From Candidatus Aenigmatarchaeota archaeon (GTDB lineage: Archaea; Aenigmatarchaeota; Aenigmatarchaeia; QMZP01; QMZT01), in assembly GCA_003663325.1 (NCBI GenBank), contig QMZT01000003.1:1-47570 (forward strand): a stretch of 47,570 bases of DNA. Direction: 5' to 3'. A program made the position numbers and the translations under genes. The notes under the pieces were generated by a model, which saw only the letters and a program-made list of their open reading frames with translations, searched no databases and had not been told where the DNA came from. Below, in pieces: positions 7,655-47,570 of the stretch (positions within the stretch are counted from its first letter, which is position 1; each line of letters starts with the position of its first letter).

Positions 7655-8572
7655 TTACACACTGAGCGGTGGCTTAACATCAACCCTTATTGTTTTCCTA
7701 AAGCTATAGGTGTATTCTATTTTAGCATTGATCCAGTATGTCTTTTCAAGCTCAACCCTTTCCCCACCCCCTAGTTTAATCTCACAGACATAGAATGGTG
7801 ATTTTCTTCCTATAATTCTTATTTCTTTTGCTTTCTTTTTACAATCTTCTACCCCAGTTATTCCTTCTCCCTTTAATTCTCGCAGCTTTATCTTATCCCC
7901 ATAAAGCTCTCCTTTCCCCTTGTTTTCGATCCAAAACCTCATTAGTCCGCTGCCTTCGTTATCTTCAACAATGATCGGCTGGCCGCGAACCTCAACATAG
8001 GGCTTTATCGGACCCTCGCCAACAGAAATTCTCGCTGTTGAGCTTATCTTCTTTCCTTCCATCAATAATCTTTCATACTCCTTTTTATTCACAAATGTAA
8101 CAGAAGAGGTGGAATGCGTTATATATTCATATTTAACCATTATTCCAATATCGCATGTATTCTCAACACTAACCCTTTTTGCCTTCAATTTCCATTCTAT
8201 TATTCCTGTTGATTGCGGACCCAATGTACCAATATTACATGTTCTTTCACCCTCTTTCTTTCCTCCTTTGTCACCACTACAACTTATGAGGTTTATATCA
8301 AAGAGATTGCAATCGTTGTAAAGAGAAACCTTAACATTCTGAGGCTCTCTTTCTGAGCTTTCCATAACATTTTTTATATAAACCCTCAATGTCGCACTTT
8401 CCCCAGACCTTATCTCACTTGAAGGGGTTACTCTTATCATATCTATCACAACAACATCATCGCTATACTCTTTAACGCTTGCTCCTAAAAAGGGTAGCTC
8501 GATGTTCGTTCCCGGAATTGTGCAACCAGAGATCAAAACAATTAAAGCAACAACAGCGATATACTTTTTCAT
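7655..8572 (-). CDS. Putative lipoprotein with two Ig-like domains (paralog 1)
   Basis: Lipobox ISGC; IEWKL; YEYIT; GP; NKGKG; C-terminal YTY. Confidence 0.8.
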   Translation of the reverse strand: MKKYIAVVALIVLISGCTIPGTNIELPFLGASVKEYSDDVVVIDMIRVTPSSEIRSGESATLRVYIKNVMESSEREPQNVKVSLYNDCNLFDINLISCSGDKGGKKEGERTCNIGTLGPQSTGIIEWKLKAKRVSVENTCDIGIMVKYEYITHSTSSVTFVNKKEYERLLMEGKKISSTARISVGEGPIKPYVEVRGQPIIVEDNEGSGLMRFWIENKGKGELYGDKIKLRELKGEGITGVEDCKKKAKEIRIIGRKSPFYVCEIKLGGGERVELEKTYWINAKIEYTYSFRKTIRVDVKPPLSV

Positions 8573-24611: not shown

Positions 24612-27600
24612 GTGATAGAAATAAGATTGAAAGAATCGGTAATGGTTTTATGTATATTGTTTGCTATGTTTCCCTTAGTTTCAGCTTTAGATGTAGACAT
24701 AGCGCCAGCTAAGCCTCATACGAGCGATGATTTAAAATGCAATATAAATGGGTATGCAGAAGATTATCTCTTCAGATGGTATAGAAATGGAAAATACTAT
24801 ACAGAGGGATACGGCAAAGATGTTATAAGCCATGAGGAAACAAAAAAGGGTGATAAATGGGAATGTAGAGTTTATAGCTATCTTGGTTCTTTTGGGCTAA
24901 CGGAAGCGGGCAGGGCAAGCACAAGCATAGTAAATGCCGTGCCATCAATAAGCCTTTTAGAGCCAGAAAATAATGCAATTGTTGATGATGAGTGGGTTTC
25001 ATTTAGATGGCAAGGCTATGATGAAGATGATGATGAGCTAAGCTATACACTCTTTGTTGGCAATAGCTTAGAAACCATGCAAGAGGTAGTAGAAATAAAA
25101 AGCAAGAGCTATACAATGCATGTTGAAAGAGGAGAGCAATATTATTGGAAGGTTAGAGTGTGTGATGGGCAGGAGTGTAAAGAAAGTAGAGCATGGAGCT
25201 TTAGTGTTAAAGAAGAAGTAGAGCAATGCGAGCCTGAGCTTTATGTTACCACGAACCAAATAAACTTTGGAGAAATAGAAAAGGGTTTAACGGCAGAAAG
25301 GAGCTTTTATATTGGAAATAGGGGGTGTGGAAAGCTAAGTTATAATATAGAATATGATATAGATATAGTGGTTAGCCCATCTTTTGGTATTATTGATCGG
25401 GAACAAAGTGAAAAGATAATTGTTAGAATAGATACAAACAAACTAAACCCAGGGTATTATGAAGCATACCTAAGGATAAGCTCAAATGGTGGTGCAGCAA
25501 ATGTGAAACTCATAGCCATGGTAAAAGCCAAGCCAATTCCTCAAAAGGAGCATATGCCTAAGGCATTAAATGTTCACATTGAGCCTTTGCGCCCAAAAAC
25601 AACAGACAGGCTAACATGCGAATATGATTTTTATGATGAAGATGATGATGATGAAGGCAAAAGTGTGGTAAAATGGTATAAAAATGGTATTTTTTGGAAA
25701 GCAGGGAAGGTGCTGGATAGCTCATATACAAAAAAAGGAGATGTATGGAAATGTAGTGTTGAGCCTGTTGATTCAAAAGGCAACCATGGAACTATTTCCT
25801 ATTCTCCACCTATAACAATTGAGAACTCCCCACCCAAGTTAAAGAAAAATATAGAGGATCAAATAGGGAAAGAGAGCATGGCATTTGTTATTAATCTTAG
25901 AGATTATTTTTATGATCCAGATGTAGAAGATGGAGTAGAGACGCTTACTTATTATATCCCCCCTCTCTCCCATTTTCAATCTAAATTAATAGGAGATATT
26001 GTCACTTTTACACCTCATAGCAAGCATGGAATCGAGCACATTGTTATTGTAGCAAGCGATAGCCATGCAAGCGTATCATCGAATAGATTTAAGCTTGAAA
26101 TTACCCATGAGAACATACCACCTGTTGCAAGACTTTCTGCAAACAGATATGAAATAGAGGAGCATGAAGAGGTAGTTTTTGATGCAAGCCAGAGCTATGA
26201 TGATGACGGCTATATAGTTGCGTACAAATTTAATTTTGGTGACACCGCCACGGAATGGCTTTCCGCAAGCGTAATTAGGCACGCATATAATAGGGAAGGT
26301 ATATACTATGCCTATGTTGAGGTTAAGGATAATGACGGCAAGGTTTCGAGAAGCGAAAAGCTTATGATAAATGTGCTCAAAGCTGAGCCTGAGCCAGAAA
26401 CCGTTACAGAAAATCATATACCTGTGATACATTCTCTTTCACTTCAACCATCTACGCCAGCTCCAGATGATAACCTCGTATGTTATGCTGCAGTTAGCGA
26501 TGCCGATGGGAATTTGAATAATATAGAATTTAGCTGGCTCATTAATGGTAATACTGTTAAGACGGCAAATAAAATAATAGCAGGCAGCAATGCTGAGAGG
26601 AGTGATACACTTCTAATTGACGCTCATGCGGGGGATAAAATAACGTGCAAGGTCAAGGTAGTGGATAAAAAAGGCGCATACTCAATAAGGCACGTTGAGG
26701 TAACAGTAGCAGCCCGTACACAGCCATCCATACTTTCCATTTCAATCTCCCCCTCCCATCCATCACCTACCGACACGCTTACATGTTCTGCACTCATAGA
26801 AGATGAAGATGCTGACCTAAGCACAGCAAAATTTGAATGGTATAAAAATAACCAATTCATTGCAAAAAGGGAAAAGAGCATAGAGGGTGGGAGATTAAGT
26901 GTTTCAGATAGCATATATATCCCAAAAAGTGATAGGGATATCATAACGTGTGTTTTGACAGTATATGATTCATCAACGCTTTCCTCTTCAAAGAGCGCAA
27001 GCGTTAGTATAACACAGCTGGCATTGCCAACTTTAAACGAACCACCCGTCTTTGACAGCATATCTATATACCCTTCCATACCCTTAGCTAATAATGATAT
27101 AACCTGCACCGTAAGTGTAAGTGACAGGGATGGCAATCTCAACTATGTTGTCTTTTACTGGTATGTGGATAATATCTTAGTTAAGAGTATTACAAAAGGC
27201 ATTAATGGCTACTCTGCTATAACAAGCGATACACTGCGCTCGAGCTATATAGAAAAGGATAGTATAGTAAGGTGTATGGCAAAGGTATATGATGGTAAAA
27301 ATGCGTGGAGTAAGGCTGAGAAAAGTGTAACAGTAAGCATAGTTAGCACAGCTAAAACACCGCCAAGTATAGATATTCCAGATTACCATACAATGCCTGG
27401 AAAAAGTATAGTGATTGATCTATGGGAGTATGCAAGCGATGAGGAAGATAGCGACGCAATGTTGAAATTCTTTATCCTGAGCCAGTCAGATACATCCAGT
27501 GCTTATTGTGTTATAGAGCACATGCACTATATTAAGTGCTATGCAAAGAAAGATGGAAGTAGTGTGGTATCTGTGAGGGTTTTTGATAGCTCTGGTTTAT

Positions 27601-29012
27601 TTGCGGAGGACTCCTTTACCATTCATGTAGAATCTGCAAAGCCTGTGATCAACTCAATATCCCTGCTCCCAGAGCAACCAACGACAAATGATGATATAAT
27701 ATGCACAGTTATGGTAAGTGATGCTAACAGCGATCTTAATTACGTACTTTTCGAGTGGTATATAAATGGCATAAAGGTTAAGAGTGAGACGAAAAATGTT
27801 TATTCATACTCAGACACGGCAAAAAGTACTCTTCCACGCTCATATACAGCAAGCGGTGATACAGTGAGGTGCGTAGCAAGTGTTGTAGATATGCGCAACA
27901 ATATAGCCAGGTCTGAGAAATCAATTGCTATAATGCAGGAGATATCACTCGCGCCTGTAGCTATTATAAGTGCAAGCCATTACAGAGTAAAGCCTGCTGT
28001 GCCTGTTTATTTCTCGGGGGCAAATAGTTATGATAGGGATGGGTACATAACAAGCTACTATTTTGATTTTGGAGATGGGCATAGTAGTGGTTGGACCATG
28101 CATAGTGGTGTCTATCATTCCTATGCCAGACCAGGGGTTTATAACGTAAAGCTGAAGGTGATGGATAATACAGGAAAGATAAGCGCATGGTCTCAAGTAA
28201 CAATAGTTGTTGAAAGTGAAGATGTGTGCGGGGTTGAGATAACAAAGATAGAGCATCCAACAAGTGTTGTTAAAAATGCCTGGACCAAGGTGTGGGTTAA
28301 AAATACGGGAAGCGTGACAACAAAGATTGTATTGAGATTGTATATAGATGGGGTTATAAAGAGTACATACACAGCGATACTTTCTGCAGGAGAAGAGAGA
28401 CTAAATAAATTCGATTTTGTGTTAGATAATGGCACATATAACATAAAAATAGAAGCATTCGCCTATTGCAACAGCTATGACTATGAATGTTTCACAATAA
28501 GCTCCGTTCCTGAGCCTGGTGTAGAAAAGGTAAGCATGGCTCCCTCTGAACCACAGAAGGTTGCAGAATTTGTTAAAGTATACCCAGATTCTATCGATAT
28601 GGAGGTGCATACAGGAAGCGTTATTACAATAGAGCTGCAGAGCAGGGAGAAAGCGGTATATAATATAGAGGTTGAGGGTATGCCGAGAGATTGGCTTAGC
28701 TATCCCGATACCGTTGAGGTTGAAGGGAACAAAAAGGTTTACGTATATGTAACGCCTCATGAAATTGGGAGATATAGTCTTTTAGTAAGGGTATCAAGTA
28801 ATGAGACGAGTATAAGCAAACCCATTGGCGTGTATGCGGCCCCTTCCCTAGCCAGAAAGGTAAGCAAGGATGTTACTGGGTTGTTTTTGCAGAAAAATGC
28901 AATATATTTTGCAGGAGGCATAGTATTTATAGTCTTCATATCCCTTCTTTATTATCTAATAAAGGCGAGGAGGAAAAGTTATACCGAAGAGGTATATGGG
29001 AGTTATTACTAA
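24612..29012 (+). CDS. Large cell-surface protein with disulfide-type Ig repeats, two PKD domains and a C-terminal TM anchor (start may be TTG 24627 or ATG 24642)
   Basis: Signal peptide ..PLVSA; six P..P...D.L/I.C...W...C repeats; PKD motifs FDASQSYDDDG..YKFNFGD and FSGANSYDRDG..YYFDFGDG; C-terminal TM followed by KARRK. Confidence 0.85.
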   Translation: MIEIRLKESVMVLCILFAMFPLVSALDVDIAPAKPHTSDDLKCNINGYAEDYLFRWYRNGKYYTEGYGKDVISHEETKKGDKWECRVYSYLGSFGLTEAGRASTSIVNAVPSISLLEPENNAIVDDEWVSFRWQGYDEDDDELSYTLFVGNSLETMQEVVEIKSKSYTMHVERGEQYYWKVRVCDGQECKESRAWSFSVKEEVEQCEPELYVTTNQINFGEIEKGLTAERSFYIGNRGCGKLSYNIEYDIDIVVSPSFGIIDREQSEKIIVRIDTNKLNPGYYEAYLRISSNGGAANVKLIAMVKAKPIPQKEHMPKALNVHIEPLRPKTTDRLTCEYDFYDEDDDDEGKSVVKWYKNGIFWKAGKVLDSSYTKKGDVWKCSVEPVDSKGNHGTISYSPPITIENSPPKLKKNIEDQIGKESMAFVINLRDYFYDPDVEDGVETLTYYIPPLSHFQSKLIGDIVTFTPHSKHGIEHIVIVASDSHASVSSNRFKLEITHENIPPVARLSANRYEIEEHEEVVFDASQSYDDDGYIVAYKFNFGDTATEWLSASVIRHAYNREGIYYAYVEVKDNDGKVSRSEKLMINVLKAEPEPETVTENHIPVIHSLSLQPSTPAPDDNLVCYAAVSDADGNLNNIEFSWLINGNTVKTANKIIAGSNAERSDTLLIDAHAGDKITCKVKVVDKKGAYSIRHVEVTVAARTQPSILSISISPSHPSPTDTLTCSALIEDEDADLSTAKFEWYKNNQFIAKREKSIEGGRLSVSDSIYIPKSDRDIITCVLTVYDSSTLSSSKSASVSITQLALPTLNEPPVFDSISIYPSIPLANNDITCTVSVSDRDGNLNYVVFYWYVDNILVKSITKGINGYSAITSDTLRSSYIEKDSIVRCMAKVYDGKNAWSKAEKSVTVSIVSTAKTPPSIDIPDYHTMPGKSIVIDLWEYASDEEDSDAMLKFFILSQSDTSSAYCVIEHMHYIKCYAKKDGSSVVSVRVFDSSGLFAEDSFTIHVESAKPVINSISLLPEQPTTNDDIICTVMVSDANSDLNYVLFEWYINGIKVKSETKNVYSYSDTAKSTLPRSYTASGDTVRCVASVVDMRNNIARSEKSIAIMQEISLAPVAIISASHYRVKPAVPVYFSGANSYDRDGYITSYYFDFGDGHSSGWTMHSGVYHSYARPGVYNVKLKVMDNTGKISAWSQVTIVVESEDVCGVEITKIEHPTSVVKNAWTKVWVKNTGSVTTKIVLRLYIDGVIKSTYTAILSAGEERLNKFDFVLDNGTYNIKIEAFAYCNSYDYECFTISSVPEPGVEKVSMAPSEPQKVAEFVKVYPDSIDMEVHTGSVITIELQSREKAVYNIEVEGMPRDWLSYPDTVEVEGNKKVYVYVTPHEIGRYSLLVRVSSNETSISKPIGVYAAPSLARKVSKDVTGLFLQKNAIYFAGGIVFIVFISLLYYLIKARRKSYTEEVYGSYY

Positions 29013-29013
29013 A

Positions 29014-29061
29014 CAGAAAATATTTATAAATTTAACTACCAATAAATAAGTAAGTTTGGTG
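29014..29061 (+). promoter_or_regulatory. Putative archaeal promoter (BRE + TATA) and SD upstream of the second surface protein
   Basis: CAGAAAA followed by TATTTATAAA (29021-29030); TGGTGA SD just before ATG 29068. Confidence 0.55.
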
Positions 29062-29067
29062 AAAAAT

Positions 29068-31266
29068 ATGAAATATGCAATCATAGCAGCATGCATCGTT
29101 GTGTTAATATTAGCGCCTGGTGCTTTTGCATACTCAAATTTGGAAATGGTAATAACGCCGAGCTATGTTTCAGTATGCCCATGTAGTGCAGCCTCTAATA
29201 TAAATCTCATGCTCACAAATCTCGATGATGAAACAGATACGTACAAGCTAAGGTTAGGGCTTCCATCCGGCTGGTCTGGTTTCATAGAACCTGAGGTTAC
29301 ACTTGCCTCTGGTGAAAGCAGAAGTGTAAGCATTTATGTAACGCCTGATTGTGTCTCTGAGCCAGCTGTTTATATTGTAAAGGTCATTGCTACCTCTAGC
29401 CTAACAGGTGAGGTATTTTCAAAGGATCTTAAGGTAGAGGTTTTGAGATGCCATCATGTTAAATTGTATGTTGAACCTCAAATCTCTATGTGTAAGGGGG
29501 AAAGTATAGATTATGGCATAGATGTAAAGAATATGGGGAAGTTTGATGAGGAATTTAATGTCAATATAGCTACGCCATGGGGGCAACATATAACCCATAC
29601 CATTAAGCTCTTATCTCAACAAACGAAAAGGATCGTTGTAAAATTAACACCGCCAGCAGATAAAACAGGTGAGTACTATATAGAGGTTGATGCCAACTCT
29701 TTAACGAGCTATGCAAGCGATACGGCTGTAAGCGAGCTTACAATAGAAAACTGTTATGATTTTGACGCATACCTGAGCCCATTCTCCCAAGATGTGTGTT
29801 TAGGTAGGCTTGCAAGGTTTGATTTGGTAATAGTAAATAAAGGCACCAAGGACGATAACTATACTATTTCAATGCCGTCATGGGTTATCTCCGATAAGGA
29901 AAGTGTCTACCTAAAAGGTGGCAGGCAAGGGAATGTAAAAATATACGTAAAGCCAAGAGTAGCGTTTGAAAAGGAATTTGATATAACGATAGCATCTTCA
30001 AAAAAGCCGGGGTTAAGGTATGTAGTAAAGGGTAAGGTTAGCGCAAGGGATTGTAGGAAGGTTGCAGTAATAATAACACCTGCAGACTCAGAGGTATGTT
30101 ATGGGTTGGAGAAGGTATATGATGTTATTATAAAGAACACGGGAACCATAGAAGAGACCTACAATATTGTATCTACGCATGGTAAACTTTCACAGAGCAA
30201 GGTATTTCTCAATCCAGGTGAGACTAAAAAGGTAAAACTAACTGTTGGTGCTGAGGAAATGGAGCTTGGAAAGGTTATGGTAATTGTGGTAAAGGCGTTT
30301 GCAAAAGGCATAGCGGATGAAAACATAGCAACGCTTGCTGTTAAGAATTGTTATTCTGCTGAAATGAGCGTGGAGCCAGAGTATAAAAAAGCATGTAGAA
30401 AAGAGGTAATAAACTACTCTATTAACGTAAAGAATACAGGCAGATTTACAGATAGCTACACATTATACATGGATAATAAAGAGATTGCCAAATTCATACT
30501 CAGAAGTGGCGAGGAGACCGTATTTACAAAAAGCCTTTACCTCTTCCAGCCATATGCACAAACCAAAGAAATTACCTTTAAGCTTAATTCATCCTTTGTA
30601 GCTGTTGAAAAACATGTAAAGGTGGATATTAGACCAATAGAAGAATGTTATAGTGTTGAGATTAACATAGAGGGTAATGGGAAAAGGGTGAAGGTTATAG
30701 GTATGCCAACAGGTGCTGGTGTTGCAACGGGCTTTATAAAAGAAAGGGCGGCAAAGGTAAATGTTGATGTGTGTAAGACGGCTGTGTTAAACGTTAGGAT
30801 AAGGAACATAGGGGAAATGAGTGATGTGTATAACGTAGCGATTGAGGGGCCAGAATGGGTCTATATAAGCCAACAAAAATTCCTGTTGAAGAAGGGTGAA
30901 GCAAAGAATGCGTATATATACATCTCGCCACCATACAATGTAAAAGGAAGCTATGTAGCAAAGTTAATTGTTTCGTCGGAGAATATCAAAAAGGTTGTAG
31001 AAATTTTAATAAATGTAAATCAGTGGGATGCGTGTGTAATTGAAGGGAGAGAGGTTAATATAACCACGCCGGCGCAGCCAAAAGAGAATGTAACAAATAT
31101 AAGTGGCATAGAAGTGCCAACAAGGAACGTAACAGCTAATATAAGCAATGAGACGATAACAGGCGCTGTTCCCGTAAAGATAGGTTTGAAGAGTATACTG
31201 GCAGTAGTAATAATAATATCAATAGTTTGTATATTGGCTGCAAAGATTATAATGGTAGTGAAGTAG
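29068..31266 (+). CDS. Cell-surface protein with six Cys-bracketed Ig-like (COG1470/NEW3-like) repeats and C-terminal TM anchor
   Basis: Signal peptide ..PGAFA; repeated N.G...D/E.Y/F motif; N-glycosylation-rich stalk; C-terminal hydrophobic helix. Confidence 0.85.
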   Translation: MKYAIIAACIVVLILAPGAFAYSNLEMVITPSYVSVCPCSAASNINLMLTNLDDETDTYKLRLGLPSGWSGFIEPEVTLASGESRSVSIYVTPDCVSEPAVYIVKVIATSSLTGEVFSKDLKVEVLRCHHVKLYVEPQISMCKGESIDYGIDVKNMGKFDEEFNVNIATPWGQHITHTIKLLSQQTKRIVVKLTPPADKTGEYYIEVDANSLTSYASDTAVSELTIENCYDFDAYLSPFSQDVCLGRLARFDLVIVNKGTKDDNYTISMPSWVISDKESVYLKGGRQGNVKIYVKPRVAFEKEFDITIASSKKPGLRYVVKGKVSARDCRKVAVIITPADSEVCYGLEKVYDVIIKNTGTIEETYNIVSTHGKLSQSKVFLNPGETKKVKLTVGAEEMELGKVMVIVVKAFAKGIADENIATLAVKNCYSAEMSVEPEYKKACRKEVINYSINVKNTGRFTDSYTLYMDNKEIAKFILRSGEETVFTKSLYLFQPYAQTKEITFKLNSSFVAVEKHVKVDIRPIEECYSVEINIEGNGKRVKVIGMPTGAGVATGFIKERAAKVNVDVCKTAVLNVRIRNIGEMSDVYNVAIEGPEWVYISQQKFLLKKGEAKNAYIYISPPYNVKGSYVAKLIVSSENIKKVVEILINVNQWDACVIEGREVNITTPAQPKENVTNISGIEVPTRNVTANISNETITGAVPVKIGLKSILAVVIIISIVCILAAKIIMVVK

Positions 31267-32716: not shown

Positions 32717-34942
32717 CTAAGGTCTTAAATATTTCACACATGCAAGCTGACCAAAGCTTATACCACCATCCCCACATGGCACGTGTTTATTTCTATATAC
32801 ATTCCCTAACTCCCTCTCCAGTGTTTTACTTATTATTTCATTGTAAGCAACACCACCACTAAAGCATACCTCCATGCCAAATCTTTTTGCTATCTTTGCA
32901 AGCCCCTTTCCTATTGCATAATGTACGGACAGCGCAATATCGCTTACAGGCTCATCTAAATGCTCCATAATACCCTTGAATATCTCTGTCGTACTTAGCA
33001 CATAACATCCGTTTATTTCCTTAACCTTAACAGGTAGCTCCAAATCCCTTTTCCCCTTTAAAGCTATACTTTCAAGCTTCATTGCAGGTTCTCCTTCATA
33101 GCTTCTCCTTTTACATATGCCAAGAAATGCTGAAACAGCATCCAAAAACCTTCCACAACTTGTAGTTTCTACTATGTTAAATTTATTTTCCAGTTGTCTT
33201 AACCACACACCAACATGGCTTTCCTCGCTTTCCTTAATCAGCTTTGCGATCTCTTCTTCATTCAAAAACTTGCTCATTATGGCAACACTAAGCCTTAGCG
33301 GTTCCTTTGTTGCGTAATCCCCGCCAATCATGGCTTGTGTTTCAAGCATGCCAACCCTTTCTAACCTGCCATTTTTGTATAAAAACACCTCCCCTCCCCA
33401 TGCTTTTCCATCACTTCCGTAGCCAAACCCATCGCACACAATGCCAACTCCCTTTTCTAGATTGTTTTCTTGCATGCAAGAAAAGAAATGGGCGATGTGG
33501 TGTTGCTGCCTCAAGAGAACGGCATTAAACCTTTTTGCAAGTTTTGATGCAAGGTTTGATGTGTTAAATCTTGGGTGCAAATCGCATACAACATACTTAA
33601 TACTCTTTATCTTTAGCATATCAAGGAACTTCATCACCTCTTTCTCAAGCCCATCCAGCGCATTGATACTTTCAATATCCCCATTGTATGAGGATATGTA
33701 AGCTTTACCAGCCTTATATATACAAAATGTATTTGAGTAGTCTGAGCCCATGCAGATTATCGCATGCTTTCCAGCATCTATTTTCAATGGGAGCGGAACG
33801 AATCCTCTTGCCCTTCTTATAAAACTAACCTTTCTATTAACTACTCTTATAACAGAGTCATCACATCTGTTAGCTATATCTCTATCATGTATTAAAAAGC
33901 AATCAACAATATCTTTAAGCTCGGTCAGAGCTTTTTTATCATCTATTATTGTTGGCTCTCCAGATAGGTTTGCAGATGTCATTATAACAGGCTCCTTTAT
34001 ATAATCAAAAAGAAGATAATGCATACCCGTGTATGGTAAAAAAACACCGACATTGTGCAGGCCGGGTGCAACAAATTTAGAAAGATTATAGTGCTCGGAT
34101 TTCCTTAAAAGAACTATTGGTCTTGCATAGCTTTCAAGCAAACCCTTTTCTTTTTTACTAATTACACAAAATCTCTTTGCCATTTCAACATCCCTTACCA
34201 TAACTGCAAATGGCTTATTGGCTCTCATTTTCCCCTTTCTCAATCTCTTAACTGCGCTATCTGAGGTTGCAAGACATGCAAGATGCCATCCACCTACACC
34301 TTTCATAGCAATTATTCCCCCTTTTTTAATAATTTTTGCTGCAATTTCGATGCAATTGCCTGCTATTTTATTATTTGTACAGATAAGCGCAAGCCTAGGC
34401 CCACATTCATAGCACGCTATGGTTTGTGCATGATAACGCCTATTCGCTATGGTGCTGTATTCTTCCTCGCATCTCCTGCACATCCCGAACTTGCCCATGG
34501 TTGTATTCTCCCTATCATAGGGTAGGTTTTTAATTATACTAAACCTTGGTCCACAATTGGTACATGTTATAAACCAATACCTATACCTCCTGTTCTCTCT
34601 GCTATAAAGCTCTTTTATGCATTCCTTGCATATAGCTATATCTGGCGGTATAGTTATGTCTGCATGGCCGTGCTCTGTACTCTTTTCTATCTTAAATCCC
34701 CTGCACTTTTTTGCTCTTGTTGCCTTTATTTGAATAGATTCTATGTGAAAGGGTTCTGGGAGAGCTTTAATATCACTTATGAAAGCCTTTAGCTCTTCTC
34801 CTTTTCCACATGCCAGAATCTCAATACCTTGCGGTGTATTCCTAACATACCCCTTTATATTATTTTTTACCGCTATCCTATGTATAGAAGGTCTTATACC
34901 CAGCCCCTGCACTATCCCTCTTATCAGAATAATCCTTTGCAT
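32717..34942 (-). CDS. hypF: [NiFe]-hydrogenase maturation carbamoyltransferase HypF
   Basis: Acylphosphatase domain GIVQGLGIRP; two Zn fingers (CKEC...CTNCGPRF, CRRC...CYECGP); YrdC-like KGVGGWHLAC; DLHP, QHHIAH, DGFGYG.DG, SGGV, GDGGISFGQ. Confidence 0.96.
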   Translation of the reverse strand: MQRIILIRGIVQGLGIRPSIHRIAVKNNIKGYVRNTPQGIEILACGKGEELKAFISDIKALPEPFHIESIQIKATRAKKCRGFKIEKSTEHGHADITIPPDIAICKECIKELYSRENRRYRYWFITCTNCGPRFSIIKNLPYDRENTTMGKFGMCRRCEEEYSTIANRRYHAQTIACYECGPRLALICTNNKIAGNCIEIAAKIIKKGGIIAMKGVGGWHLACLATSDSAVKRLRKGKMRANKPFAVMVRDVEMAKRFCVISKKEKGLLESYARPIVLLRKSEHYNLSKFVAPGLHNVGVFLPYTGMHYLLFDYIKEPVIMTSANLSGEPTIIDDKKALTELKDIVDCFLIHDRDIANRCDDSVIRVVNRKVSFIRRARGFVPLPLKIDAGKHAIICMGSDYSNTFCIYKAGKAYISSYNGDIESINALDGLEKEVMKFLDMLKIKSIKYVVCDLHPRFNTSNLASKLAKRFNAVLLRQQHHIAHFFSCMQENNLEKGVGIVCDGFGYGSDGKAWGGEVFLYKNGRLERVGMLETQAMIGGDYATKEPLRLSVAIMSKFLNEEEIAKLIKESEESHVGVWLRQLENKFNIVETTSCGRFLDAVSAFLGICKRRSYEGEPAMKLESIALKGKRDLELPVKVKEINGCYVLSTTEIFKGIMEHLDEPVSDIALSVHYAIGKGLAKIAKRFGMEVCFSGGVAYNEIISKTLERELGNVYRNKHVPCGDGGISFGQLACVKYLRP

Positions 34943-37894: not shown

Positions 37895-40800
37895 TTATAA
37901 ATAATTTTCTTTGCACTTCCCTGCTATATAAAGGTTGCCATTGCTATCTATATATGCAACAACCTCCCCCTCTCTATTTTCTATTATAAAGTTCCCTCTT
38001 CTTGCTTTTGCAGCGGCTAGAGCAGCTTTATTGATGTTTGTTTGGAGACTCCCGCTCAAGTATACATTCCCTGAGCTATCAACCAATGCAACACTCCTGC
38101 CCATTTCATCTTCTATAACGAAATCATTGCCATCGGCAGCAGGCATGATTGGTTGGTGTTCATTTACATTACCTTTTATGAACATATTCCCAATATTATC
38201 TATTATAAAGATAGTATCTCCGTTTTCATTCTCTATACCGAAATATGGTGGTTGTATCTCTATGGGGATTGATGGTGATTGTGTGGCATACGTTGCTAAG
38301 CTATAATCAAACTTTTCCACCATTCCAGAGCCGTGGAAGTAGATGGTTGCGTTGTTATCAAACTCCATTGCAACGAGCCTGCCTTCATAATTATATAGAT
38401 ATCTTGCAACCTTCCCGTTAGGCAGTACAACCTTCTTTAGCTTGCCAGCCTCATCATAAAAGTAGTACGTTACTCCCCCAGTACTTTTATCCTTCCTTCT
38501 TATCATATTTCCAGCCTTATCATATTCATAGATATATCTGGCATCTTCAGCGAGCCTGCTCGTTTCCCCCTTGCTCCCAGGCATGCTTACGCTCCCATCT
38601 GTGTTGTAATATCTGTATTCCTGTGTTTGCTCCCCGATCACATACCTTAATCTATTGCCTGTTTTATCGTATTCGTAACTTATATCCCCAATCCCAAGAT
38701 AGTACCCGTTGTTCTCTACCGATACCAGTCTATTGTACGGGTCATAGACGAGATTCATATCTTGTCCAGGTCCCACCGAAATCCTTTTCACATTCCCATT
38801 CTTATAGTACTCATAATATTCATTGAAAACCTTATTGCCAGAGGGATTAACACTTTCTACGGATTTTATCCAACCCCTTGGGTAGTATTCATAACTCGTT
38901 ACCACACCGTTCCCCATTGTAATCTTTTTGAACGCATTCGTTGGTGTATATTCAAAGGCTGCTATCGGCACAAAACGGATAAATACCGAATTAACCTGCA
39001 TCTTATCGTTTATTCCAAATTGTATGTACCTTCCGCTTGGATACCTAATAGCTATTATATTATCCCCAAAATCATAGAAATATTCCACATCAAATATGTT
39101 ATTTTCAAACTCCGTCATATTTACATAGTAAAGCTGTACATCATCAAGATAAAGCTCACCGCCACTAGCCCCTGTACCAATATACAATTCCATTTTTACA
39201 GCATTATCTGGAGCCTTAAATACATAATAGTATCTTTCATACCTTGCTGTGGTAGAGGTACTACCGGAATAGAAGCAGTTACCACCACAGCCATCACTCC
39301 AGCTATAGCCCAAGCTATCTATACTAACGCTGGCAGGCTGTATCAAGTTACCATCTTTATCATAAAACTTTAAGGCAATCCCTAAATCTGAATTGGCAGG
39401 GGATTTCGCATACGCTGATACAGCGTAGATTTCATTTCCATAAATTGGCAGTGTTTGCATAATGTATTCATAAGGTGAAGCATCAGTTATTTTGAGGGCT
39501 TTGTCTCCAGAATGAGCATCGCTGGTATAGCTTACACTACCGAAAGTTGTCCACATCCACCCCTCTTTCTCAAATCCACCATTGATCACAAAGCTTTTTC
39601 TAACAAGCTGTACCTCATCTATATACAACTCCTCATTGCCACCAGCATTTCCTATACCTATCCCAATCTCCACCGTTTTTGCTCCTGTTGGGGCCCTGAA
39701 GAAAAATAGATAGGGTTTGTAAATCTCCGCAGTCTTTATATTGCCAGAGTAAAAGCAGCCTCCACCACAACCAACACTCCAAACACTTTGGAACGCATCT
39801 ATTGCATTATCTGAAGGTGTTATTCTCCTTTCATTGCTATCATAAAATGTTAATGTAACACCAAGATTTGATGAGGTTGGTGACTTTGCGTATAAAGATA
39901 AAAGATAGACCTCATTCTCCTCAATGGGAAGCAGTTGATAGATGTATACATATTCCTCCCCCTCTTTTACAGAAATACTTACAGCCTTACCACCAGAGTG
40001 TGAATCTGTTACGATGCTTGCCTGAGTTGGCATATTCCATAACCACTTACCTCTTTCAAACCCACCATTCAATATGAGGTTTCTTCCTCTTATAGCACTT
40101 ATCTTCTTCTTTATCCTTCCCCTTATATCATACTCTATTCTCGTTGCCCCAGATTCATCGCGCACCTCACAAAGCCTGCCCTTGCCATTCTTACATTCCT
40201 CCCCATTTGCATACGTATCGTAGAAGTATGTAGTATCGAATGATCTCGGATAATCAATCTTTTTTATCCTGTTAGCTCTGTCATAGTAATACACCACCTT
40301 ATCTCCATTTGCATTTGTTATACTTTTCCTTAGATCATTCCTATAGTACTCATACTCTATTGTTCCAAGATCAGGATCACTAACGTTTTTTACCTTCCCA
40401 GATGGATCATAGCTGAGCTTGGTTACCCTCCCTTCCGCATCCCTGAATTCCTCTATCTGGCCAAGCACATTGTATTTGTATGTGGTTACCGCCTCAAACC
40501 TATTACCACCACAGCTCTGCCCAGGATCCACTATTTTACCAGCAAGCGAACAGCTATCAGGACATACGCAAGCCTCGCTTCCCTTATTTTCACCGCAAGT
40601 TGCGCATTGATCAGTAACAGGAAGAAAACCCGGTATTTCACGAAACATGACATATTTTTTCTTGCACCCAAGAGCTATGCAACCATCTATATCATAGCAT
40701 GTATCAATACAATCCTCAAGAAAACTTTTTATTCCATCCCCTGAGATTATGATTTTGCCTAGTATTTCGCTCTCAAAACATTTTTTACTACATTTTGCAG

Positions 40801-41506
40801 GAGCAGAGGCAACACAGAAAGGATCACATTTTTTAAATAGACTGCTATAATATGGATCACACTCATGCCTCCCACAGTAACAGGGTTCGGTTTCACAGTC
40901 CTCATAATAGCAAGAATAACGGCAAATATCATACATACAGTTATCAAAACAATTCTTCGCATCTGATCCAAAACTCTTTCTTTCATGCAAAATATTAGAT
41001 TTACTGTAAAGAGTAGTTGTTTTAACATTCTTTATCCTTATTCTTGGATATCTTGGATACTCTCCACAAATATATGAAAATGTCATATTTGTGGGTTCTA
41101 CTTGCAATAAAGAGAGGTATTCATAAGGTTTTAATTCACCCTCACCGGTGAATCCACCGATACTATAGTTACACAACAACTTGAACATTACATTCTTTAT
41201 AACTGTCGATATTTTACCACATCCAATAGAATCGCATTGAATATCTGAGCTTAGGCAATCCTCAGGACAATTTTGTGTATTTTCATCTTTATCTTCTTCG
41301 CACAAACCATTTCCACAATGGTGAAGACATTCACAATTTACTCCAGACTTATGTACCTCGTACCCTTCTGGGCAGGTATAATCTGGGTATGAGCCTTCAC
41401 ATTTCAACACCTCTGGATATTCTGCTGTCTCGGCAGAAAGAGCCGAGTATGAAAACAACACCAAAAATACTATTACTATTCCCATCGTTAGCTTTATTCT
41501 TTCCAT
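37895..41506 (-). CDS. Secreted RHS/YD-repeat protein (C-terminal half of the shell) with Cys-rich N-terminus, two CBM4/9-like inserts and a triple-repeat tail
   Basis: Signal peptide; DPDLGTIEYEY, YDRANRI, GRLCEVRDESG, YDKTGNR, YDKAGNM, YDEAGKL YD repeats; two NGGFE...DxVQL modules. Confidence 0.88.
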   Translation of the reverse strand: MERIKLTMGIVIVFLVLFSYSALSAETAEYPEVLKCEGSYPDYTCPEGYEVHKSGVNCECLHHCGNGLCEEDKDENTQNCPEDCLSSDIQCDSIGCGKISTVIKNVMFKLLCNYSIGGFTGEGELKPYEYLSLLQVEPTNMTFSYICGEYPRYPRIRIKNVKTTTLYSKSNILHERKSFGSDAKNCFDNCMYDICRYSCYYEDCETEPCYCGRHECDPYYSSLFKKCDPFCVASAPAKCSKKCFESEILGKIIISGDGIKSFLEDCIDTCYDIDGCIALGCKKKYVMFREIPGFLPVTDQCATCGENKGSEACVCPDSCSLAGKIVDPGQSCGGNRFEAVTTYKYNVLGQIEEFRDAEGRVTKLSYDPSGKVKNVSDPDLGTIEYEYYRNDLRKSITNANGDKVVYYYDRANRIKKIDYPRSFDTTYFYDTYANGEECKNGKGRLCEVRDESGATRIEYDIRGRIKKKISAIRGRNLILNGGFERGKWLWNMPTQASIVTDSHSGGKAVSISVKEGEEYVYIYQLLPIEENEVYLLSLYAKSPTSSNLGVTLTFYDSNERRITPSDNAIDAFQSVWSVGCGGGCFYSGNIKTAEIYKPYLFFFRAPTGAKTVEIGIGIGNAGGNEELYIDEVQLVRKSFVINGGFEKEGWMWTTFGSVSYTSDAHSGDKALKITDASPYEYIMQTLPIYGNEIYAVSAYAKSPANSDLGIALKFYDKDGNLIQPASVSIDSLGYSWSDGCGGNCFYSGSTSTTARYERYYYVFKAPDNAVKMELYIGTGASGGELYLDDVQLYYVNMTEFENNIFDVEYFYDFGDNIIAIRYPSGRYIQFGINDKMQVNSVFIRFVPIAAFEYTPTNAFKKITMGNGVVTSYEYYPRGWIKSVESVNPSGNKVFNEYYEYYKNGNVKRISVGPGQDMNLVYDPYNRLVSVENNGYYLGIGDISYEYDKTGNRLRYVIGEQTQEYRYYNTDGSVSMPGSKGETSRLAEDARYIYEYDKAGNMIRRKDKSTGGVTYYFYDEAGKLKKVVLPNGKVARYLYNYEGRLVAMEFDNNATIYFHGSGMVEKFDYSLATYATQSPSIPIEIQPPYFGIENENGDTIFIIDNIGNMFIKGNVNEHQPIMPAADGNDFVIEDEMGRSVALVDSSGNVYLSGSLQTNINKAALAAAKARRGNFIIENREGEVVAYIDSNGNLYIAGKCKENYL
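37898..38251 (-). repeat. Three ~40-aa protein repeats at the C-terminus of the RHS gene
   Basis: FGIENENGDTIFIIDNIGNMFIKG / FVIEDEMGRSVALVDSSGNVYLSG / FIIENREGEVVAYIDSNGNLYIAG. Confidence 0.85.
39125..40085 (-). repeat. Tandem duplication of a ~155-aa carbohydrate-binding-like module inside the RHS gene
   Basis: Both copies share NGGFE..W.W, DxHSGxKA, YIxQxLPIxxNExY, YAKSP..S.LG..L.FYD, CGGxCFYSG, FxAP..A, ELY.DxVQL. Confidence 0.85.
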
Positions 41507-44500
41507 CTTCCTTCCTCCACCTTTACGAGTCTGGTTAGTTTATCAAACAAATGCCTTATTTGATTTCCTTCCTCATCCTCTGTTGTTACATAAAGCATGC
41601 CATCCTTTATACCATAATAGTACTTGATAGTTCCTAGCAGATTTCCATCTTTATCATAGGTCTTTGCAGCCTTTAGCCTCGCAAGTGGATTTGGATAATA
41701 CTCATACTCTATATATGCCCCCCTTCCCTCTTCCTCAAAATATGGCTTATACCTTCTCTTTATCAATCCCCTGCTTCCGAGAATAACATCATAGCTAACA
41801 ATATTACCATCACTGCTATGCACAACGGATTTTATCTTTCTGTTTAATCCATCATAGTATACCCTTTCTGTATAATACCTTGTGTTGTCTATCTTTTTCT
41901 TAAGGGTTAAAGATATTGGAAATTCCCCATCTGGGTTAAAGGTATACTCATATATTAGCGATGGCTTGCTTGTATCGTCACCAGGGAACCATACCTTGCT
42001 AAGTCTCCAAAAGTTATCATATTCGTACCTTGTTTCCTGTCCATTTTCATTTATTAATTTTATTGGCAATAAAGAAGTTCCATCATATACCTTTTGCCAT
42101 GCAGGCTCTGCTTCGCTTCCATACTCATCATTCCACCCTTTGATGGGCATTACACCATATTCATTATCATACCTTGTATACTCAGATTTTCCCTCACCAT
42201 CTGTTGATTTTATAATATTTCCATAGCTATCATATTCAAGTGTTTTCTTCACCACATATTCATCGCCTGCATCTATCTTTCCATTTTTATTCGTATCATA
42301 CCATTGCTTGATTTTGTAAGGATATATCCTGCCACCAAAGGATTTATACTCCGTTACCATGCTCTTTAATGCTTTCCATTTTTCAAAAGGATCGAGAGCC
42401 TCTTCTTCTCCAATTGTATAGCTCGGCCTCGCCTCAACCTTTTCTAGCCTGTCCGCAGTACCACCACTTCCACGCACCAAAACTTCCTTTTTCACAATTT
42501 TTCTCGTGTACAGCTTATCCAAACCCTTGCTAACATCTGTTATCTGCAAATAAGCATAATCTTTGCCATTATGTCCTCTGCCTGCGAATATAAATCTACC
42601 TTCTGGTATAATTGCCTTGTACTTTTTAGGATTGCTATGACTACCAGTTCCATCGCAATCTCCCACATTACCACCAATAATATATGTTACGTTAGTAGAA
42701 TATATCGCTGTCCATGCCTCATCATCATCTGCAATAGTAGAAAATATAAGCTCAAACTCATTAGGCGCTACGAATTCTTTCCTTACAAACCATACAAACC
42801 ATGTTGCTTCCCCCTCATCGACATAATCAGTAGATATATCTACACCCCTACCCTTCCAATTATAGCCAGAAGGCTTTTCAAAACTTGTTAAAGCTGAATC
42901 TTCTAGTTTTGTCTTGCATCCCCCACTAGGTAGTGTTGCATCCCATCCTTGCTTGAAATTATCAAAGCTTCCAACTTTATCAAATACCTGCGTTCCGTCA
43001 GAGGCGGAGCTTGCCTTTCTATTTCCGTAATATACATAGATTTTTGTTTCGCCGTTAGCAGGTATATGTGGCACTCTTACCCAGAACTTCCCATAGGATT
43101 CCATCCAGTACGGCAATTCTTTACCTTGCTCGTCTGTAAATCTTATATCAGCATAGTTTGGTTTAAGCTTTGCCTCAAACCGCTGTCGTATTTCTTCTTG
43201 GGTTAGCTCCCTTTTGTATATTTTTACCTCATCTATAGAGCCATTATAATCTTTAATATACTTTCTAGGATCTTTACCTATTACCAAAGATGCTTCTCCT
43301 GCGCCCACATCTTCCAATAAATTACCCGTCTCAACATCTCTCGAACCTACAAAATTTCCATCAATATATAATTTTACTTTTCTTGTGGATTTATTATAAG
43401 TACCTACAACATGGTGCCATTTATTTAAGGTTATAGGAGCTGTAACACCATAAAAAAAATGCTGAGTTCCACGAGATGTTTCTGTTTCTGTTGTTACACC
43501 AAACATCAATTCGGAGTATCGTGTAATATATACTTTATATATGAAAAGATCTTCTTCTTTACTCTTTTTACCAAGGATAAAGATATAAGAAAACGTGCCT
43601 TCGTTATAAGAATTTGGTTTGATCCACATCTCCACACTTAAACCATCGTAATTGCTTACATTCAAACTATCTGAATATGGAATTTCAAGATGCCCATTAC
43701 CTTCAAATAACAATGCAGAATTAAACACACCCTCAACGGTTTTTACGTTATTAACTATTGTACCATCATTCATAAATCCACTTGAATCGTATACCTTCCC
43801 TTCTTTTATTTTCTCGAAACTCCATGCACCAACCAAACCCGTTTCATCATATACGGGGTTTTCTATGAGTAATTGATAATTATCTAAATCCTCTTCGAGA
43901 CCTGTAATTGCTATTGGTCTTCTATAATTCATATTTAACATAAGATAATGCCCAACACCATTATCATCCTCTATGCAAAAGTCCAGCTCTTTTGATGGTG
44001 TAGTGCTACACTCACCATCGATATACATTCTACAATACCCATTTATACACCCACAATTATGCGGACATATATTGCTCTCGTACACATTTCTATCAACTTC
44101 GTATGTTGTTGCGTTGCTAATTGGTGATATTATATGCTTAGAAAGCATTTCAGGATAGTAGTTATATACATAATCCATGGTAGATACCTTGAACTTATCA
44201 TTACCCTCTTCTATTATAAACCTGGGCAAGCCAGTAAACTCATCGTATCCAGAATATTTATGTATCTTTACCATATCTCTACCGTCATAAATTGTTGTAA
44301 TCATGGATCTCATTCTAGACCAACCAGAAGAAAAGCCATCAAGATAGTCTCCATCCTTTGTCCCAATTTTTGCACCCGCTAGCTCACCACCGCCGTAATA
44401 AACCTTGAAGTGTTCTTTCATTTCGTATTTCCTTTCAAACGTCATAAGAAGTCCGTCCAACCCTTCACTCTTGTTACTACTATAATACTCAACTTTATAA

Positions 44501-47568: not shown

Positions 47569-47570
47569 TA

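Follow-up and report, generated by a model that had tools for sequence, protein, structure and literature searches.

Analysis of a 47,570-nucleotide (nt) contig of Candidatus Aenigmatarchaeota archaeon (GenBank QMZT01000003.1; this whole stretch is hereafter called the window) points, with a probability that we put at roughly 60%, to a single RHS cocoon of the TcB/TcC type that is encoded by three closely spaced genes of one operon, all of whose products carry a Sec signal peptide. Two of these genes, here termed shell gene 1 and shell gene 2, lie at the end of the window and encode successive runs of YD repeats, while the third, encoding the RHS-associated core, was located on a metagenome contig (L013) whose end overlaps that of the window. 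The evidence consists of the gene structure, the homology and colinear arrangement shared with single-chain relatives, the fold of the gene 2 YD blocks as a shell and the recurrence of split layouts in the phylum. The original prediction for this DNA, made from the window alone, was of one cage assembled outside the cell from two separately exported chains; its complementary, consecutive parts and its signal peptides stand, but closure by two chains does not, because neither window chain has an RHS core and the two would not close the cage.

Gene organization and colinearity with single-chain relatives

Both shell genes are on the minus strand. The elements that define the locus are given below, in window positions unless L013 is named.

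41494..47570, minus strand: shell gene 1 (putatively TcB-like), truncated at its 5' end by the contig end (open reading frame (ORF) list, translation, L013 overlap)
37895..41506, minus strand: shell gene 2 (like TcC without its core), 1203 amino acids (aa), product P0002 (ORF, translation and family matches)
41494..41506, minus strand: 13-nt overlap, from the stop codon of gene 1 (41494-41496) to the ATG of gene 2 (41504-41506) (sequence, ORF coordinates)
41510..41521, minus strand: Shine-Dalgarno-like GGTGGAGGAAGG before the start of gene 2 (read directly from the sequence)
41432..41506, minus strand: predicted signal peptide of gene 2, residues 1-25, cut after ALSA (n-, h- and c-regions read from the translation)
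L013:9470-10120: missing 5' end of shell gene 1 (123-nt identical overlap, frame continuous)
L013:8338-9459: core gene, 373 aa, product P0109, with its end 10 nt before shell gene 1 begins

The frame of shell gene 1 in the window (41494-47568; product P0001, 2024 aa) is open to the contig end, and its C-terminal end reads ...EEGNQIRHLFDKLTRLVKVEEGRWKE before the stop codon, inside the YD-repeat run. The Shine-Dalgarno-like GGTGGAGGAAGG of shell gene 2 lies 3 nt 5' of the start codon, with its GGAGG core (41514-41518) 7 nt 5' of it. The N-terminus of P0002 reads MERIKLTMGIVIVFLVLFSYSALSA followed, beyond the predicted cut, by ETAE; the signal peptide is made up of MERIK, LTMGIVIVFLVLF and SYSALSA, with the cut before E and a hydrophobic segment at residues 6-24, and the YD repeats restart at about residue 336 (AVTTYKYNVLGQIEEFRDAEGRVTKLSYDPSGK...DPDLGTIEYEY). 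An upstream gene ending in the middle of the YD run and a downstream gene with a 13-nt overlap, its own Shine-Dalgarno sequence and its own signal peptide had all been proposed in the original prediction and are present in the sequence, as are, in the translation, all of the peptides that it quoted; the restart of the YD register after a Cys-rich region also holds, with a length of ~310 residues (26-335) in place of the ~330 given there.

Shell gene 1 was completed with L013, a 22.9-kb JGI metagenome contig whose end is identical to the last 123 bases of the window, with the frame continuing across the overlap. L013 adds 177 residues, giving a full protein of 2201 aa of which the window encodes residues 178-2201, and recovery of this upstream 5' end, which had been suggested as a check, uncovered a predicted Sec-type signal peptide (...KLVAIFAIMLLANMLAITPKLVSA, cut before S). 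Judging from the in-frame 123-nt overlap and the tetranucleotide profile, L013 is from the same organism as the window: its tetranucleotide correlation with the genome is 0.983, compared with 0.81-0.985 for the genome's own contigs and 0.36-0.88 for five other genomes of the phylum. The spacing of the three genes is tight, with the 13-nt overlap between the shell genes and a 10-nt gap from the core gene to shell gene 1, and no gene lies between the latter two. Cleavage of the three signal peptides is predicted after VYS, VSA and ALSA.

Regarding homology, the parts of the locus were compared with P0263, a database relative of 2238 aa that combines SpvB, FG-GAP, TcdB_midN, RHS repeats, core and HNH in a single chain. 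The matching segments, including those of the L013-encoded part of shell gene 1 (P0108, matched by BLASTP to the SpvB region), are as follows.

P0108 40-117 to P0263 45-117 (E 8e-10)
P0001 1774-2019 to P0263 992-1239 (E 3e-20)
P0002 340-465 to P0263 1247-1375 (E 8e-18)
P0002 865-951 to P0263 1452-1537 (E 4e-4)
P0109 26-147 to P0263 1826-1947 (E 1e-12)

Because each piece maps to a successive segment of P0263, the pieces are consecutive and non-overlapping; the end of gene 1 and the YD restart of gene 2 are separated on P0263 by a seven-residue gap (992-1239 and 1247-1375), in keeping with the earlier statement that these two segments are normally contiguous in a single chain, and relative to P0263 the genes stand in rotated order, with the core first and shells 1 and 2 after it. 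Tandem duplication of YD runs was considered as an origin of the two shell genes and ruled out, since the runs map to different, consecutive parts of P0263. As to the TcB-TcC boundary, P0263 1386-1570 corresponds in alignments to residues 212-417 of TccC2 and 1700-1903 of the TcdB2-TccC3 fusion, a weak stretch that is insignificant alone relates P0263 1144-1198 to TcdB2-TccC3 1383-1441, ~35-50 residues before the TcdB end, and P0002 residue 336 stands opposite TccC2 residue ~38 in whole-model structural alignments of lower quality. Extrapolated through P0263 and the structural alignment, the archaeal split would lie at or near the TcB-TcC boundary, within a few tens of residues, which makes the analogy to TcB plus TcC drawn in the original prediction an apt one.

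The junction between the shell genes was checked in public Logan contigs from four runs, which are assembled contigs, not raw reads, with a depth of ~1-10. A 313-nt Logan record (41348-41660) spans the junction with no differences and no insertion or deletion was reported there in any of the four runs; at the level of contigs this covers 41450-41550, the stretch marked for verification, and the support is not independent because the best-matching runs may come from the source sample. Among the public runs listed for this DNA, none is of RNA. Two vent metagenomes contain relatives of both genes at 90-95%, in which every cluster of insertions and deletions totals a multiple of three, and 18 of the 31 listed substitutions in gene 2 are at the third codon position and 16 of the 31 are synonymous, the listing covering 40 of 212 differences. 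A frameshift origin is excluded because a signal peptide and a 310-aa Cys-rich domain cannot arise by frameshift, and a frameshift or pseudogene reading was rejected in view of the signal peptides, the unbroken ORFs and the similar splits seen in other genomes. One contig of the X4 run joins 38083 to 46565 and skips the 8481 bases between them; the joint has 4 extra letters, its shorter side is only 21 letters long, and it was dismissed as probably a repeat or foreign match.

The core gene and the domains of the shell genes

The product of the core gene, P0109, consists of a predicted signal peptide, an RHS-associated core, a Pro-rich linker of ~70 aa and a C-terminal domain of ~135 aa. Its score for TIGR03696 is 32.0 bits (cut-off 32.5), with 64.5 and 74 bits for stand-alone archaeal relatives, and it matches cores in the PDB, including those of Rhs (7q97, E 1.3e-4), Tse5 and TccC2. 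An RHS core was not found in P0001 or P0002 (Pfam, NCBIfam), nor was one found elsewhere in the binned genome, in a search in which control genomes gave matches. The self-cleavage Asp columns, which we take to be the catalytic pair, hold Ile, Ala or Lys in P0109, and PDB titles name matching cleavage mutants, D651A and D1369N/D1391N. An alignment of 28 cores includes 13 that keep both Asp positions together with the motif DPxG and 15 without DPxG, among them P0109 and its relatives P0111 and P0112. By this alignment the P0109 type is a non-cleaving core variant, and its C-terminal domain probably stays tethered because the cleavage Asp is absent and the Pro-rich linker is long. For the C-terminal domain no Pfam match, no usable ESM Atlas match and no recognisable toxin fold were found; likewise, no immunity gene is recognisable beside P0109, and the 133-aa gene upstream of it has no family match. 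P0109, P0111 and P0112 are 42-47% identical in the core and then diverge, a conserved core followed by variable C-terminal domains among relatives being a feature of polymorphic toxins that is present here. The secreted RHS-core mini-proteins P0109, P0111, P0112, P0116, P0118, P0122, P0123, P0127, P0144, P0186 and P0204 form one subfamily, all without DPxG, with Pro-rich linkers in at least P0109, P0111 and P0112.

Shell gene 2 comprises the following parts after its signal peptide.

40502..41431, minus strand: Cys-rich region, residues 26-335 (~310 aa) (translation; no match in a Pfam search; predicted local distance difference test (pLDDT) <50)
40079..40501, minus strand: first YD block, residues 336-476 (colinear with P0263 1247-1375, E 8e-18; pLDDT ~85-92)
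39110..40078, minus strand: two CBM_4_9 / NTTRR-F1-like domains within the YD run, residues 477-799 (Pfam CBM_4_9, E 8.1e-11, two stretches)
38321..39109, minus strand: second YD block, residues 800-1062 (pLDDT 71-93; structural match to shells)
37898..38248, minus strand: C-terminal module of three ~35-aa beta-hairpin repeats, residues 1087-1203 (homology matches; Pfam SBBP, E 4.7e-6, on the excised piece; low pLDDT)

At a level well beyond chance, P0002 is a member of the Pfam family RHS_repeat (E 2.5e-25, 88.7 bits vs. a cut-off of 22) and of the NCBIfam family YD_repeat_2x (TIGR01643; 46 bits vs. 15.8), and the NCBIfam match to NTTRR-F1 (E 5.4e-16) is under the cut-off of that family. In an AlphaFold2 model of P0002, high confidence is limited to the two YD blocks (residues ~335-474 and ~805-1057), and the second of these can be superimposed on Rhs, TcC and teneurin shells over their C-terminal halves (Z 17.5-18.6, root-mean-square deviation 3.5-4.0, 300-312 residues); as modelled, the YD blocks of gene 2 have the spiral beta-sheet shell fold. 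A search with P0002 in 40 related genomes returned no close homologue, and matches were confined to the C-terminal module (7 places) or the Cys-rich N-terminus (2 places); the second shell gene of the related genome G346 has a similar Cys-rich N-terminus. The three-repeat module (F.IE...G..VA.IDS.GNLY..G) also occurs in large proteins of seven related genomes, in frames of 649-3761 aa, and may be a lineage-specific surface-anchoring or lectin module.

The fit between the chains was modelled by co-folding four chains with alignments: P0001 1760-2024 (the partner), P0002 335-476, P0002 800-1062 and P0109 24-165. The interface score ipSAE is 0.76 (0.71, 0.79 and 0.76 in the separate runs), while three controls gave 0.00-0.12; of the solved complexes 58 of 80 attained the mark used, as did 2 of 110 mismatched pairs, a calibration that is only a rough guide for a four-chain job with custom alignments. 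The runs share at least 96% of contacts and the partner pLDDT is at least 76. Residues 2013-2022 of P0001 pair with 336-345 of P0002, the strand continuation predicted by colinearity, and loops that recur at even intervals in P0001 contact loops of P0002 812-925 in the manner of adjacent turns of a YD spiral. The end of gene 1 and the start of gene 2 are in this way modelled as one continuous sheet, the outcome that the proposal of a shared shell had anticipated; because TcB-TcC and single-chain Rhs structures are already solved, the pass demonstrates likeness to known structures, not binding of these chains.

Shell gene 1 has the following recognisable domains in the window.

45181..45663, minus strand: first LamG/ConA-like lectin domain, P0001 ~636-796 (Pfam Laminin_G_3 in two stretches, partial Sialidase-N and TS_C)
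43189..43701, minus strand: second LamG domain, P0001 1290-1460 (Pfam Laminin_G_3, E 2.3e-50)
42949..43158, minus strand: DUF2341, P0001 1471-1540 (Pfam PF10102, E 2.9e-19)
41512..42249, minus strand: C-terminal YD run, P0001 1774-2019, stopping at the split (colinear with P0263 992-1239, E 3e-20)

The first LamG domain matches PDB 4qvs (E 7e-4), and Pfam RHS_repeat has a weak match near the end of P0001 (E 0.0083). A PDB sequence search with the YD end of P0001 had teneurin-4 as its best match (E 0.0011) and found no TcB, and a scan of GTDB genome contigs with P0001 gave no match. At the start of the protein, an SpvB/TcB-type N-terminal motif in P0108 scores below the Pfam cut-off (SpvB, E 9.4e-4, 18.9 bits vs. 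22). Between this motif and the remainder of shell gene 1, just before the contig joint, lies a hydrophobic helical hairpin (FIIPLAIIMIIITLASGG...PIWAKIALGVALSLFTSYIY, P0108 residues 138-178, L013:9881-10003), which is absent from four archaeal relatives examined (G250, G346, G152) and may be a membrane tether.

Regarding the genomic setting, the window is an entire contig of a metagenome bin of 735 kb in 28 contigs that is 82% complete. The archaeal host is supported by the GluRS of the window, which passes the archaeal equivalog TIGR00463 (577 bits vs. a cut-off of 402), and by aCPSF1 on the neighbouring contig, which passes TIGR03675 (882 bits vs. 580). Other large or surface-type proteins are encoded in the same genome, namely a 1466-aa surface-type protein that begins with a signal-like stretch, contains PKD and Ig domains and ends in a hydrophobic C-terminus (window 24612-29012, plus strand), a 736-aa surface-type protein with an Ig-like domain (29056-31266, plus strand), and a 3107-aa frame, open from the start of another contig, with a weak LamG-like match to P0001 748-805 (G000:C5:1-9321, plus strand). 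The window also encodes a full-length HypF carbamoyltransferase (32717-34942, minus strand; 741 aa, five of five Pfam domains), in a genome of ~0.7 Mb.

Recurrence of split layouts and relation to known RHS systems

When the core of P0109 was searched for in 371 genomes of the phylum, it was matched at 42 places in 27 genomes; 10 of these places are in frames of 1427-2004 aa and 32 in frames of <1000 aa, and sixteen regions were inspected for gene layout. G346 has a 1114-aa gene for a signal peptide and SpvB N-terminal part, the stop of which overlaps the start of a 1268-aa gene for a signal peptide, Cys-rich region and YD repeats, and a divergent 422-aa gene for a signal peptide, core and C-terminal domain (TIGR03696, 64.5 bits); its split lies ~200 residues earlier on the P0263 scale than that of the window. 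Two coreless shell genes are found in G250 (2487 aa, and a 2870-aa frame of which 2847 aa lie inside locus L036), each adjoining a gene for a signal peptide or transmembrane segment, core and C-terminal domain, and the totals for this genome are five cores and two shells. In G150 (L042, G150:C19), a shell gene is followed by two tandem genes for a signal peptide, YD repeats and core, and these genes are colinear, at 46-49% identity, with a single-chain 1623-aa protein of its genus-mate G152 (L044, G152:C8) that contains signal peptide, SpvB, YD repeats and core. The stand-alone cores of G248, G250 and G150 have differing C-terminal domains, several of them with HExxH-like motifs. Locus L047 of G012 (G012:C24) has the order core gene, then gene for a signal peptide and SpvB N-terminal part; a masked run of N (~7850-7917) stands directly before its core-containing 646-aa ORF, and the gene calls of this locus are unreliable because of the masked run.

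From these gene layouts, splitting recurs across the phylum, at different places. The homologues are not always single-chain and the split layout is not unique to this organism, as G346, G250 and G150 demonstrate; split shells in other archaeal genomes, for which a search had been proposed, do exist and are cut at different positions. In a library of 1.84 billion proteins, P0109 had 11,551 matches at E <= 1e-3, and among the best 150 of these, 126 are shorter than 650 aa, 68 of the 126 having a Met start and a hydrophobic N-terminus. The bacterial-type relatives found with the shell queries have the core in the same chain in 96 of 112 cases.

One of the two closest parallels is with the Tc BC proteins (TcdB2-TccC3, TcdB1-TccC2 and YenB-YenC2; 4o9x, 6l7i, 4igl), in which the RHS cocoon also consists of more than one polypeptide and an RHS core caps the end; the first Tc chain opens with an SpvB-type motif, of which shell gene 1 has a putative counterpart, and the archaeal chain break would be at or near the same shell position; the predicted shell fold of gene 2 matches YenC2 and TccC3 at Z ~18. 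Unlike Tc BC, the archaeal locus has a Sec signal peptide on every chain, lectin-like inserts, a TcC equivalent that is itself divided into a shell part and a part with core and C-terminal domain, and a core without both cleavage Asp. The FG-GAP propeller and TcdB_mid were not detected in P0001 by Pfam, including searches of excised regions, with LamG and DUF2341 found instead, whereas P0263, P0265 and P0267 do have FG-GAP and TcdB_toxin_mid domains. A TcA partner (PF18276) gave no match in the 82%-complete genome, a search that is uninformative because the control genomes were equally silent.

The other is with the single-chain proteins that join signal peptide, SpvB, RHS repeats, core and toxin (P0263 and the 1623-aa protein of G152), with the same module order and direct colinearity. 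It differs from the single-chain toxins of the 'TcdB/TcaC' class in using three genes for one chain and in having no recognisable toxin or immunity gene. Passages of Zhang et al. (2012; PMC3482391) describe this 'TcdB/TcaC' trafficking class of polymorphic toxins as having a signal peptide and report it also from some archaea. Effectors of type VI secretion systems (T6SS), such as RhsA (7q97), Tse5 (8cp6), Tre23 (7pq5) and Tse15 (8uxt), likewise have a YD shell and core and provide the best sequence matches of the core and of the gene 2 repeats, but they are cytoplasmic, single-chain, mounted on PAAR/VgrG, self-cleaving and without signal peptides. With teneurins (6fb3, 7bam; fold Z 11-15) the locus would have in common an extracellular, membrane-tethered YD shell and a core that does not release the C-terminal domain, which in teneurins sits outside the shell; teneurins are eukaryotic type II membrane proteins of one chain that have an FN-plug together with an NHL propeller, whereas the locus is multi-chain and archaeal and has no such Pfam domains. 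The orphan rhs-CT cassettes of enterobacteria code for a core piece and a variable C-terminal domain at sites separate from the main shell gene. Cores can outnumber shells in the archaea (five vs. two in G250), and the archaeal core genes have their own start and signal peptide and can be upstream of or divergent from the shell gene.

The original prediction regarded the system as a candidate for an undescribed one; in its architecture, the locus belongs with the known polymorphic toxins of the TcB/TcC or SpvB-RHS type, of which it is a variant. New here are the signal peptide on each chain, the stand-alone exported core, the non-cleaving core type, the lectin decoration and the setting in small-genome archaea, and the abstracts covered by a literature search contain no description of a split, Sec-exported archaeal RHS shell.

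Alternative explanations, proposed assembly of the cage and its meaning

The strongest alternative, which we consider unlikely, is that each YD protein acts on its own as a surface adhesin or lectin carrier and does not assemble, with a partial YD sheet as rigid stalk and the core gene unrelated to the two. The many modules of carbohydrate-binding type (two LamG, DUF2341, two CBM_4_9 and the C-terminal repeats) would suit such proteins, as would a separate signal peptide on each YD protein, the lack of a recognisable cargo or toxin domain and the placement of a Cys-rich domain of ~310 aa exactly at the presumed seam. However, the YD runs follow one another within one shell and are not paralogous copies, the operon provides the one missing part, the core, which is found nowhere else in the genome, the co-fold has the strand continuation with controls at 0.00-0.12, and an open half-shell would leave unpaired edge strands exposed.

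It is improbable that the locus is a decaying one, in which a former single-chain gene lies in fragments drifting to loss. Most of the retrieved relatives are single-chain, with a core in 96 of 112, the catalytic Asp has been lost from the core and fragments do accumulate in small symbiont genomes; against this, the ORFs of 2201, 1203 and 373 aa have no internal stops, every fragment opens with a proper signal peptide and start site, the strain variants are in frame and enriched in third-position changes, comparable splits occur in other genera, and the non-cleaving cores form a family of their own (15 of 28 aligned cores without DPxG). An assembly artefact, whether a chimeric join or indel at the junction or a false join between the window and L013, would be conceivable for a metagenome bin with low depth in public contigs (~1-10) and 123 nt common to both contig ends that could be a repeat or graph branch, but is most improbable given the contig record across the junction with no differences, the lack of any indel there in four runs, a downstream signal peptide and Cys-rich region that no frameshift can yield, a frame that runs through the L013 overlap into an N-terminal motif common to all relatives, and a composition of L013 that fits the genome.

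Several points weigh against the three-gene cocoon itself. Three unfolded, Sec-exported chains must find one another and close a cage beyond the membrane. The link to the core gene depends on the contig join via the 123-nt overlap, and L013 is outside the binned genome. That gene 1 forms a half-shell like that of TcB is inferred from its motifs and from a patchy colinear match to archaeal relatives: P0001 40-600, 830-1240 and 1560-1760 had no Pfam match when excised, even at E 5, and an AlphaFold2 model of P0001 825-2024 from a 12-row alignment has a mean pLDDT of 32.6. The co-fold score may mirror the solved TcB-TcC and Rhs structures, and gene 2 was entered as cut pieces. There is no single conserved seam, because the split point varies between genomes, and a role in cargo delivery is unproven because the core is without self-cleavage residues and the C-terminal domain without a toxin fold. 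The device may be an effector carrier or an adhesin; neither a toxin fold nor an immunity gene is recognisable.

If the three products do form one cocoon, the chains would fold after Sec export and join edge to edge by beta-strand pairing into a single cage at the cell surface, which the hairpin of shell gene 1 may anchor in the membrane. The LamG and DUF2341 domains of gene 1 would take the place of the TcB beta-propeller, and its YD repeats would end where TcB ends. The LamG, DUF2341, CBM-like and C-terminal repeat modules would face outward and might bind glycans of a host or neighbour. The core subunit would cap the cage and present or hold the variable C-terminal domain, either displayed outside, as in teneurins, or kept inside.

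A broader proposal, which we advance only tentatively, is that the small-genome archaea of this phylum have a modular cocoon formed after export, in which a lectin-decorated shell of one or two chains is capped outside the cell by exchangeable, Sec-exported cartridges of core and C-terminal domain, several per genome. If true, such a cocoon would serve contact with a host or neighbour as a polymorphic device for effector action or recognition, and closing the cage and handling the cargo would have to proceed differently from Tc and T6SS Rhs toxins, which co-fold in the cytoplasm. To our knowledge, all solved RHS cocoons (Tc BC, T6SS Rhs and teneurins) are formed by one chain, or by two in the cytoplasm, with the cargo enclosed during shell formation. 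The separate Sec export of each piece, including the cap, poses the question of whether a YD shell can close and hold or display a domain extracellularly. The core searches also point to a large unannotated class of secreted mini-proteins in metagenomes, composed of a signal peptide, an RHS core and a variable domain, and the three-gene cocoon, if true, would be a candidate contact or effector device for symbiotic small-genome archaea.

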